Source: a virus (taxonomy: Duplodnaviria > Heunggongvirae > Uroviricota > Caudoviricetes). From it: a stretch of 64,000 nt of DNA. Of this stretch, positions 41,564 to 42,153 are shown one piece after another. The notes under the pieces were generated by a model. The model saw only the letters and a list, made by a program, of their open reading frames with translations, was not told where the DNA came from and did no database searches. Location: IMG/VR virus record IMGVR_UViG_2721755651_000007. The stretch is one strand, 5' to 3'. Within the stretch, counting starts at the first letter, position 1, and each line of letters begins with the position of its first letter. The position numbers were made by a program, and so were the translations under genes.

Positions 41564-41791
41564 ATGTCATCGAAAAACCGGCCCCGCAGAACAACAACCC
41601 GCAACATCCGATTTCCAAACCAGATGATTGAACAAATTAACATCGCTCTTGACCAGAAAGGTTCAGAAAATTTTTCTGCGTGGGTCATTGAATCTTGCCG
41701 CCGGGAGCTGGCAGCAGACATAAAATATGCCCGTCAGTTGACTATAAAAAAGAATGATACACAGTATGCTCTGCGATGGCTGTTCATATAA
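41564..41791 (+). CDS. Arc/Mnt-like ribbon-helix-helix DNA-binding protein
   Basis: RNIRFPNQMIEQINIALDQKGSENFSAWVIESCRRELA resembles Arc RHH fold; opposite strand to late operon. Confidence 0.45.
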   Translation: MSSKNRPRRTTTRNIRFPNQMIEQINIALDQKGSENFSAWVIESCRRELAADIKYARQLTIKKNDTQYALRWLFI

Positions 41792-42153
41792 CTATTTCTT
41801 TATATTGCTGAATTTATAAAAACTCACAGACATTAGCTGTATTAATTCCGAATTGAAATAATCAGCCATATAGAATAAAAATAAAGCATAACAATAATAA
41901 TCTTCTACCCAATCAGTACATTACTGCTGTGACTCCAACACGGCAGTTTTTTTATTGAACAGATTCCAGTTTCTTCCACCATCGCACCGGACGGGCGACC
42001 ATGAGGGGAGAACGCCGCGCTCCGTTTACGCGGTAAACCCCGGTGTGTATCGTTTTTGATTATCCCCGCACACTCTCGCAGAGGAGTCTCCCTGTCGGGC
42101 TGCGGTCTCTGTTAATGCAGGAATACGGCGACGATACGGCGCATCAGCAAAAC

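Follow-up and report, generated by a model that had tools for sequence, protein, structure and literature searches.

Among the small ribbon-helix-helix (RHH) proteins of phages are Arc and Mnt of P22, where Arc represses ant within the immI region. In phage satellites, Stl of the Staphylococcus aureus pathogenicity islands (SaPIs) is a divergently transcribed repressor; it is a large helix-turn-helix (HTH) protein of Gram-positive islands. For the phage-inducible chromosomal islands (PICIs) of Gram-negative bacteria, integration, Bro, replication and late zones have been described, with RNA repressors in the Bro zone, and a term search of that paper turned up no RHH protein repressor (PMC10111431). 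In Escherichia coli K-12, the YlcI/YnfO (DUF3950) family is represented by the paralogs ylcI (prophage DLP12, beside nohD) and ynfO (prophage Qin, beside nohA). The gene studied here belongs to this family and lies at positions 41564..41791, on the plus strand, of a 64,000-nt stretch of the tailed phage record IMGVR_UViG_2721755651_000007 (Caudoviricetes), hereafter called the window.

The family is among the commonest of E. coli prophage genes and occurs in phage lambda too, yet a literature search on YlcI/YnfO (DUF3950) found no assigned function. Both the gene and its family have already been named and annotated; what is added here is their placement among RHH proteins, an unannotated copy in phage lambda, a set of candidate operators and a lead towards repressors of phage satellites. 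We propose, with a probability of about 0.6, that the window gene encodes a functional YlcI/YnfO (DUF3950) protein in which an RHH DNA-binding domain of about 50 residues is followed by a variable tail, and which acts as a small repressor. A near-universal and strongly constrained gene beside lambda cos, combined with a testable repressor hypothesis, merits specialist attention.

A constrained gene of the YlcI/YnfO family

The gene and the elements assigned to it are the following (window coordinates, all on the plus strand):

41553..41556, plus strand: Shine-Dalgarno sequence GAGG, 7 nt 5' of the ATG, read directly from the sequence
41564..41791, plus strand: YlcI/YnfO-family (DUF3950) gene, 75 amino acids, stop codon included (list of open reading frames; PF13132, NF041551, PHROG 949)
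41564..41710, plus strand: conserved cassette, codons 1-49 (megablast, alignment with lambda, ylcI and ynfO copies, dN/dS)
41591..41713, plus strand: predicted RHH domain for DNA binding, spanning residues 10-50 (TTRNIRF as beta-strand, a helix at 19-32, KGSEN as turn, a further helix beginning at 37)
41711..41788, plus strand: hypervariable C-terminal tail, residues 50-75 (alignments; modelled with low confidence as a continuation of helix 2)
41792..41922, plus strand: AT-rich 3' untranslated trailer of about 130 nt (GC profile)
41923..41954, plus strand: predicted intrinsic terminator with a 9-bp stem (stem 41923-41947), a 7-nt loop and T7 (terminator scan, RNA fold)

The protein matches Pfam DUF3950 (PF13132) over the whole 30-position model, with an E-value of 3.1e-17 and 62.6 bits against a cut-off of 25, and NCBIfam NF041551 'YlcI_YnfO_N' with 39.2 bits against a cut-off of 30, which makes it a family member at curated thresholds. 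It also matches PHROG 949, an entry of unknown function. The family core I-R-F...N-F-S-A-W-V-x-E-x-C is present as NIRFP (residues 14-18) and NFSAWVIESC (residues 36-45). In an alignment of 33 sequences (A2), R16, F37 and V41 are invariant and I15, F17, S38, A44 and C45 are at least 90% conserved, and the core motifs are kept in divergent homologs down to 25-30% identity.

The 801 bp around the gene are 100% identical in many chromosomes of E. coli strains that make Shiga toxin (STEC), including O157, where the product carries the RefSeq name 'YlcI/YnfO family protein' (WP_000095736.1). Megablast with a 421-bp probe centred on the gene (41540-41960) found a match in 3785 of 5426 complete E. 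coli genomes, the exact window variant being present in 542, and up to 12 matching places occur in a single genome (nine in one O157:H7 genome). Matches were also present in 153 phage records, mostly of Shiga toxin (Stx)-converting phages and lambda relatives. The protein family is narrow: of 1.84 billion cluster representatives, 182 match at E<=1e-3. The protein P0128 (3694 amino acids) contains 17 separate DUF3950-like stretches and is probably an assembly or gene-calling artefact.

Between prophage lineages, the DNA is homologous exactly from the ATG onward and ceases to be so near codon 49 (megablast matches to other prophages span query positions 25-171 of 41540-41960), and from residue 50 onward the proteins are hypervariable in length and composition (alignments A1 and A2). 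The upstream sequences are of two unrelated types, cos-proximal at 46 and adjacent to an HNH endonuclease gene at 29 of 77 loci, and their anchored ungapped identity of 27-30% is that of random sequence. Within codons 1-49, pairs drawn across the window, Lys8385Vzw and lambda types gave a synonymous divergence (dS) of 0.69-1.56 and a nonsynonymous divergence (dN) of 0.045-0.099, with dN/dS ratios of 0.03-0.10; for the window and Lys8385Vzw copies, both of the HNH type, the values were 1.0, 0.10 and 0.10, respectively. Residues N14, I15, R16, F17, P18 and N19 are unchanged in 32 distinct cassettes, and several of them are nevertheless encoded by different synonymous codons (CGA, CGC or CGT for R16, CCA, CCT or CCC for P18, and two codons each for N14 and F17), indicating that it is the protein, and above all its putative beta-strand, that is under selection. 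Reading frames are intact throughout: all seven E. coli-type copies that were translated in full are open, as are 32 of 32 distinct 49-codon cassettes. We conclude that 41564..41791, singled out as a 75-residue open reading frame (ORF) in the original prediction, is a real gene rather than a chance ORF and that its codons 1-49 are under strong purifying selection. That this selection is also seen within the HNH context argues that the window copy probably works.

The homology that runs exactly from the ATG to codon 49 between mosaic flanks, together with the loss of an upstream palindrome from HNH-type copies (see below), could also be expected of a sequence without a function of its own, either a decaying remnant or a conserved linker that promotes recombination between mosaic modules. 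We find this hardly credible. Near-saturated synonymous change combined with such low dN/dS ratios, also between the two HNH-type lineages, refutes it as far as sequence goes, and neither the open frames of all examined copies nor the persistence of the core motifs would be expected of a remnant. We also rejected the idea that the DNA sequence of the cassette is itself constrained: synonymous variation is spread throughout and the only quiet stretch, codons 8-13, is insufficient evidence.

With a Shine-Dalgarno sequence, the ORF, a trailer of 130 nt and a terminator in succession, the gene is predicted to be a small plus-strand transcription unit of its own, antisense to the late transcript. 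The terminator hairpin has a free energy of -17 kcal/mol (z -5.15), and none of 200 shuffled sequences was equally stable. The AT-rich tract after the gene, originally put at some 260 bp, is real but shorter, since 41792-41960 has 29% GC, compared to a window mean of 51.6%, and 41961-42050 has 60%. Between the stop codon (41791) and the terminator we found nothing beyond mechanical ORFs of 20-25 amino acids, and no Rfam family was matched at E<=1 in 40800-43700. The HNH gene starts only 41 bp from the ylcI ATG, and any ylcI promoter must fall within the 5' coding part of the HNH gene. Just two promoter-like matches are present for the window copy, a weak CTGACA-17-CAGAAT at 41434-41462 and TG-TAAAAT at 41522-41529, and the repeats around the ORF are short, present in two copies and without conservation in relatives. 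In at least 50% of the RNA-seq samples of one study, the transcripts of K-12 ylcI and ybcW overlap as a convergent pair (PMC12288877); this transcription of a paralog, which is indirect, is the sole evidence of expression.

A predicted ribbon-helix-helix domain

A strand-helix-turn-helix module of about 45 residues in the modelled protein can be superposed on solved RHH domains, as is characteristic of the RHH superfamily. The best structural matches are the RHH antitoxins TacA, AtaR, MazE-mt and a ParD-like protein; in the Foldseek search, Arc structures were among the best matches too, and the relaxosome protein NikA was also among the fold matches. In the last blocks of the model, corresponding to the tail, the predicted local distance difference test (pLDDT) score is 57-65. 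Profile alignment with hhalign against an alignment of Arc and Mnt (sequences confirmed against the Protein Data Bank (PDB)) gave a P-value of 2.7e-4 and a probability of 41% over 36 columns. It brought TTRNIRFP onto PQFNLRWP, the Gly turn onto the Gly turn and the Ser N-cap onto the Ser N-cap, and its score of 21.2 exceeded that of all 200 column-shuffled controls (maximum 17.6) and of the reversed profile (8.8). PDB sequence searches with the window protein and with the family profile yielded no meaningful match. Pfam Arc (PF03869) matched neither the window protein nor any of the 33 family members at E<=5, and the Pfam RHH models gave at that threshold a single weak RHH_6 match among the 33 members (E 0.092) and none for the window protein.

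On this combination of profile alignment and modelled structure, the assignment of the window protein to the RHH superfamily is well supported. The Arc/Mnt-like signature that had initially been read in the sequence thus holds as far as the fold is concerned and does not extend to the Arc family proper: the hhalign result points to a distant relationship to Arc and Mnt instead of membership. Common to all of them, as small phage RHH proteins, are a strand N-[IL]-R-[FW]-P, a Gly turn and a helix B Ser N-cap that align in register, but the helix B motif NFSAWV-EAC occurs in the DUF3950 family only, and the window has neither an arc-ant operon of the immI type nor a 21-bp operator of the Arc type. 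By sequence pattern the protein is nearest to Arc and Mnt, by modelled structure nearest to RHH antitoxins, and it is a member of neither family.

The structural matches, and the architecture of an N-terminal RHH domain with a variable helical tail, resemble those of antitoxins, and the protein could be an orphan RHH antitoxin whose variable tail would neutralise a partner encoded downstream, for example the DUF1398 protein YdfO/YbcV of other prophages. In Qin, ev099 and PhiR42_1, which have one common tail type of 77 amino acids (the YnfO type), a DUF1398 gene (ydfO/ybcV) follows 43-57 bp downstream on the same strand, which suggests that in these prophages the two genes may form an operon. 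We nonetheless consider an antitoxin role unlikely. There is no toxin gene next to the window gene, only the mechanical ORFs before the terminator, and a sequence-level relationship to TacA/AtaR (DUF1778) or ParD-like antitoxins is lacking. Downstream partners of the family are heterogeneous (DUF1398, a SWIM-like protein, a membrane protein) or absent, PADLOC gave no match for the window protein or YdfO, and nothing points to toxicity of DUF1398. Pairs of a ylcI-like and a DUF1398 gene were located at L004 3757-4458, L010 204-904 and L012 2444-3145.

Candidate operators in satellites and lambdoid phages

Under the repressor reading, the protein would be expressed in lysogens and form a homodimer whose two-stranded beta-sheet (T12, N14, R16) enters the major groove at a palindromic site, and the bound dimer would repress transcription. 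Operator-like palindromes were indeed found upstream of relatives. Distant homologs (25-45% identity) are encoded in small integrative elements, phage satellites of the P4/PICI kind, in which integrase and AlpA genes come first, then a gene of the Rha/Bro-N type or another gene, the ylcI-like gene (opposite strand), the gene of an Icd-like protein, small ORFs and lastly a gene for a primase/DUF927 protein or a helicase; RefSeq names the satellite genes 'YlcI/YnfO family protein' beside 'Icd-like protein'. At 25 satellite loci, two to four palindromic repeats occupy fixed positions in the 170 nt 5' of the ATG of the ylcI-like gene. Satellite loci with such repeats are:

170 nt 5' of the ATG: upstream repeats of satellite loci L005-L009, L014, L015, L096, L100-L107 and L111-L125

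In group A arrays, O1 and O2 are exactly 23 bp apart and O3 lies at -24 to -39, and group B arrays consist of two GGTAnnTACC sites at -46/-45 and -12. At L015, the reverse complement of a conserved ACACGTCAAG beside O2 is in our own reading a near-consensus leftward promoter, TTGACG-16 nt-TATAAG. O2 would then be located in the spacer and O1 at the start of this putative promoter, and O3 would abut the TATAGT -10 element of the ylcI-like gene.

The repeats vary between loci, whereas copies within one locus vary together and track the beta-strand of the protein encoded there. In group B the tracking residue is found two positions before the Asn of NIRF, and Lys, Ala and Val at this position go with CG, TA and TG/CA, respectively, at both palindrome centres. 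Thus, STKKNIRFE occurs with GGTACGTACC (CG centre) at six loci, including locus L125 of E. coli 13E0767, STAKNIRFE with GGTATATACC (TA centre) at four, and STVKNIRFE with GGTATGTACC/GGTACATACC (TG/CA centre) at one. The genes at L114 (Val) and L118 (Ala) are 91% identical and differ at the tracking residue and at both operator centres. In group A, the combinations are K-G with ...AAACAC, K-H with ...ACCCAC and L-K-N with GTGTGTAGACAC. The varying residue aligns in the hhalign alignment with Gln9 (group B) or Asn11 (group A) of Arc, both of which contact bases in the Arc-operator complex (1PAR). This repeat pattern is as expected of an autoregulating RHH repressor of divergent promoters, and we regard the repeats as putative operators. 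Two caveats apply: the Lys and Ala types of group B form two clades, so that few independent events are involved, and the proteins with K-N (L124) and K-Y (L100) share the operator TGTGCGCACA, so that no simple code applies.

These arrays open the wider possibility that a large class of Gram-negative satellites (integrase-alpA-Bro/Rha, ylcI-like gene, icd-primase) has DUF3950 proteins as its protein repressors, with the nearly invariant cos-adjacent lambdoid copies, that of lambda included, as trans-acting relatives. This generalisation is tentative and, in our estimate, rather doubtful. Such a repressor would be a functional analogue of Stl, since the satellite ylcI-like gene is divergent from the replication operon and the repeats extend over both promoters; the differences are that Stl is a large HTH protein and that the window gene resides in a prophage and not in a satellite. 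If true, DUF3950 proteins could be the means by which prophages and satellites residing together sense or silence one another, or prophages could alternatively hold packaging genes silent in lysogens, and the promoterless-looking and operator-less HNH-type window copy would work purely in trans. Rpp, the packaging-redirecting protein of PICIs, was considered as a relative and rejected, being an unrelated winged-HTH protein. At L015 a GC-rich hairpin that is conserved, AACGCCTCGA...TCGGGGCGTT with a T-rich run after it (5806-5871), coincides with the start of the leftward icd-like transcript, and the equivalent hairpin position in other satellites is -165 to -139 from the ATG; Rfam gave no match to this hairpin at gathering score. 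A C4/IsrK-type immunity RNA was not matched by Rfam at gathering score beside the satellite homologs.

In lambdoid phages the palindrome is a different one. Phage lambda itself encodes a full-length homolog of 64 amino acids, MSTKNRTRRTTTRNIRFPNQMIEQINIALEQKGSGNFSAWVIEACRRRLTSEKRAYTSIKSDEE, on the complement of 48109..48303 in J02459 (equal to L002 2710-2904, minus strand; L197), with the right cos end about 200 bp away. J02459 leaves it unannotated, and some newer lambda records list it as a 'hypothetical protein'. The first description of the window gene as situated where lambda has bor is accordingly a loose one: bor is a different gene, and lambda carries bor plus its own homolog next to cos. 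Cos-type loci have TTGAT-N4-ATCAA at -74/-73 from the ATG, perfect in 27 of 31 distinct sequences and with one mismatch in the other four. In lambda it occupies 48364-48377 (within 48350-48390, TTGATGCAGATCAA), and a second perfect copy is present at 34261-34274, at the 5' end of ral; by our own estimate, chance would account for about 0.05 perfect copies per 48.5 kb. A diverged phage gene of the L097 type (ATG at 3560, strand TVIKNIRFS) has TTGATGTAAATCAA at -76 in an otherwise unalignable upstream region. We consider TTGAT-N4-ATCAA a candidate operator. Together with the satellite GGTAnnTACC and GTGTnnnnACAC arrays, the lambda site provides concrete candidates which, with the placement of DUF3950 in the RHH superfamily, turn a domain of unknown function into the subject of a testable repressor hypothesis.

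The palindrome is absent from all 25 distinct HNH-type sequences. All that the window copy has is TTGATTCTGC at -76, within the coding sequence of the HNH gene; no perfect palindrome is present in the 64-kb window, where three distant copies with one mismatch are at chance level, and the satellite operator patterns are not enriched in it either. Elements seemingly shared between HNH-type and lambda-type upstream regions (ACGTGC at about -140, and TTGATTCTGC and TAACGTA at -76 and -60) were rejected, the identity of 27-30% being random and Lys8385Vzw being without them. In satellites the gene is divergent to the icd/primase operon, with two to four palindromic repeats over both apparent promoters, lambda-type copies keep one palindrome 74 bp upstream, and the HNH-type window copy has lost the palindrome-bearing upstream region. 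This copy might work in trans, on prophages of the same host that have the palindrome, for instance. Candidate targets in trans would be the cos-type copies of which STEC genomes hold several; one such genome has nine matching places.

The packaging end and the antirepressor-like gene

The gene is surrounded by the late-operon end of a lambdoid prophage, where it sits between Rz and the HNH/terminase genes (window coordinates, all on the minus strand):

44548-44868, minus strand: class II holin, late operon
44199-44546, minus strand: DUF1327/YdfR, late operon
43615-44148, minus strand: lysozyme, late operon
42775-43344, minus strand: antirepressor-like protein with P22_AR_N (E 1.4e-45) and ORF11CD3 (Pfam)
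42154-42621, minus strand: Rz with embedded Rz1, late operon
41157..41522, minus strand: HNH endonuclease, divergent neighbour and first gene of the packaging block (Pfam HNH)
40303-40866, minus strand: Terminase_2 small subunit, late operon
38645-40306, minus strand: large terminase, late operon

Every flanking gene is on the minus strand, hence the ORF at 41564..41791 is antisense to the late operon, as its original placement on the opposite strand implied. The same holds for every lambdoid relative examined, in which it is the gene nearest the packaging end, between the lysis cassette and the packaging genes and read against the late operon. Its distance is about 200 bp to cosN in lambda, DLP12, Qin, ev099 and PhiR42_1, and 41 bp to a divergent HNH gene in the window prophage, phage 2851 and Lys8385Vzw. 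Compared to YlcI of DLP12 and YnfO of Qin, the window protein belongs to the same family at curated thresholds, is 86% identical over its first 49 residues and is encoded in the same opposite-strand position. It differs in having another C-terminal tail (the 75-residue type), an HNH gene instead of the cos/Nu1 region as its upstream neighbour, and no TTGAT-N4-ATCAA palindrome such as the K-12 and lambda copies possess.

This constant position raises the possibility that the RHH protein is an accessory to packaging, binding near cos and aiding or modulating the terminase or HNH protein in the manner of the RHH proteins of oriT relaxosomes, one of which, NikA, is among the fold matches. Moreover, in P0205 (129 amino acids) and P0235 (120 amino acids) DUF3950 is fused to the HTH with which a Terminase_2 small subunit begins, its N-terminal one (Pfam E 1.6e-11), and both proteins end just after this HTH. 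Still, we think such a role rather unlikely: the window gene, with a terminator to itself, is read against the late operon, hence it is not co-expressed with the terminase genes, and the same protein half is found beside two unrelated packaging systems (Nu1/A and HNH/Terminase_2). At the satellite loci L006, L008, L015, L113, L124 and L125, it is the replication operon that is adjacent, packaging genes being absent from the examined flanks.

The antirepressor-like gene announced in the original prediction at about 1 kb is present, 984 nt away, and from this the window protein could be an Arc-like repressor of 42775..43344, as Arc is of ant in P22 immI. In favour of this are the RHH-like sequence that aligns in register with Arc and the P22_AR_N protein 1 kb from the gene, and a Rha, Bro-N or KilA-type gene also occurs near the ylcI-like gene in satellites and some Stx phages (PMC13612085). 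The analogy is not supported, and we judge it very unlikely. The antirepressor-like gene is located inside the late operon, between lysozyme and Rz, and presumably read from the late promoter; it converges with ylcI without a common promoter region, and it is on the other strand with Rz and an ORF of 49 amino acids in between, which is not an arc-ant operon. In the 270 bp upstream of it (43345-43614) we found no sigma-70-like site and, upon a search for operator repeats of the Arc type, none; the only inverted repeat is a palindrome at the lysozyme stop codon, and the only other repeat a perfect 11-bp tandem duplication (GTGAGATGCGC twice, 43454-43475) that shows no enrichment in the window. 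A near-identical DNA-binding half occurs, with no such gene, in lambda, DLP12, Qin, ev099 and PhiR42_1, and in satellites, where the Rha/Bro gene is convergent, it is the icd/primase operon that the operator arrays face instead. For the window locus itself, the practical outcome is therefore mostly negative: it holds an ordinary member of the family, and the Arc-ant analogy does not apply.

Some further observations concern the surroundings of the gene. In strain PV15-279, an IS1203 element (L001 7980-9193) is inserted in the gap between the lysozyme and antirepressor-like genes. A direct repeat, ATACGGCG, occurs twice with 11-bp spacing at 42123-42141, just 3' of the Rz stop codon and between Rz and the ylcI terminator. 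In packaging modules of the HK97 kind, cos is expected in the gap between the HNH and small terminase genes. In the window this gap measures 290 bp, and a C9/G-rich tract, GATCCCCCCCCCGGGGCGGGTCACA, is found there at 41130-41160.

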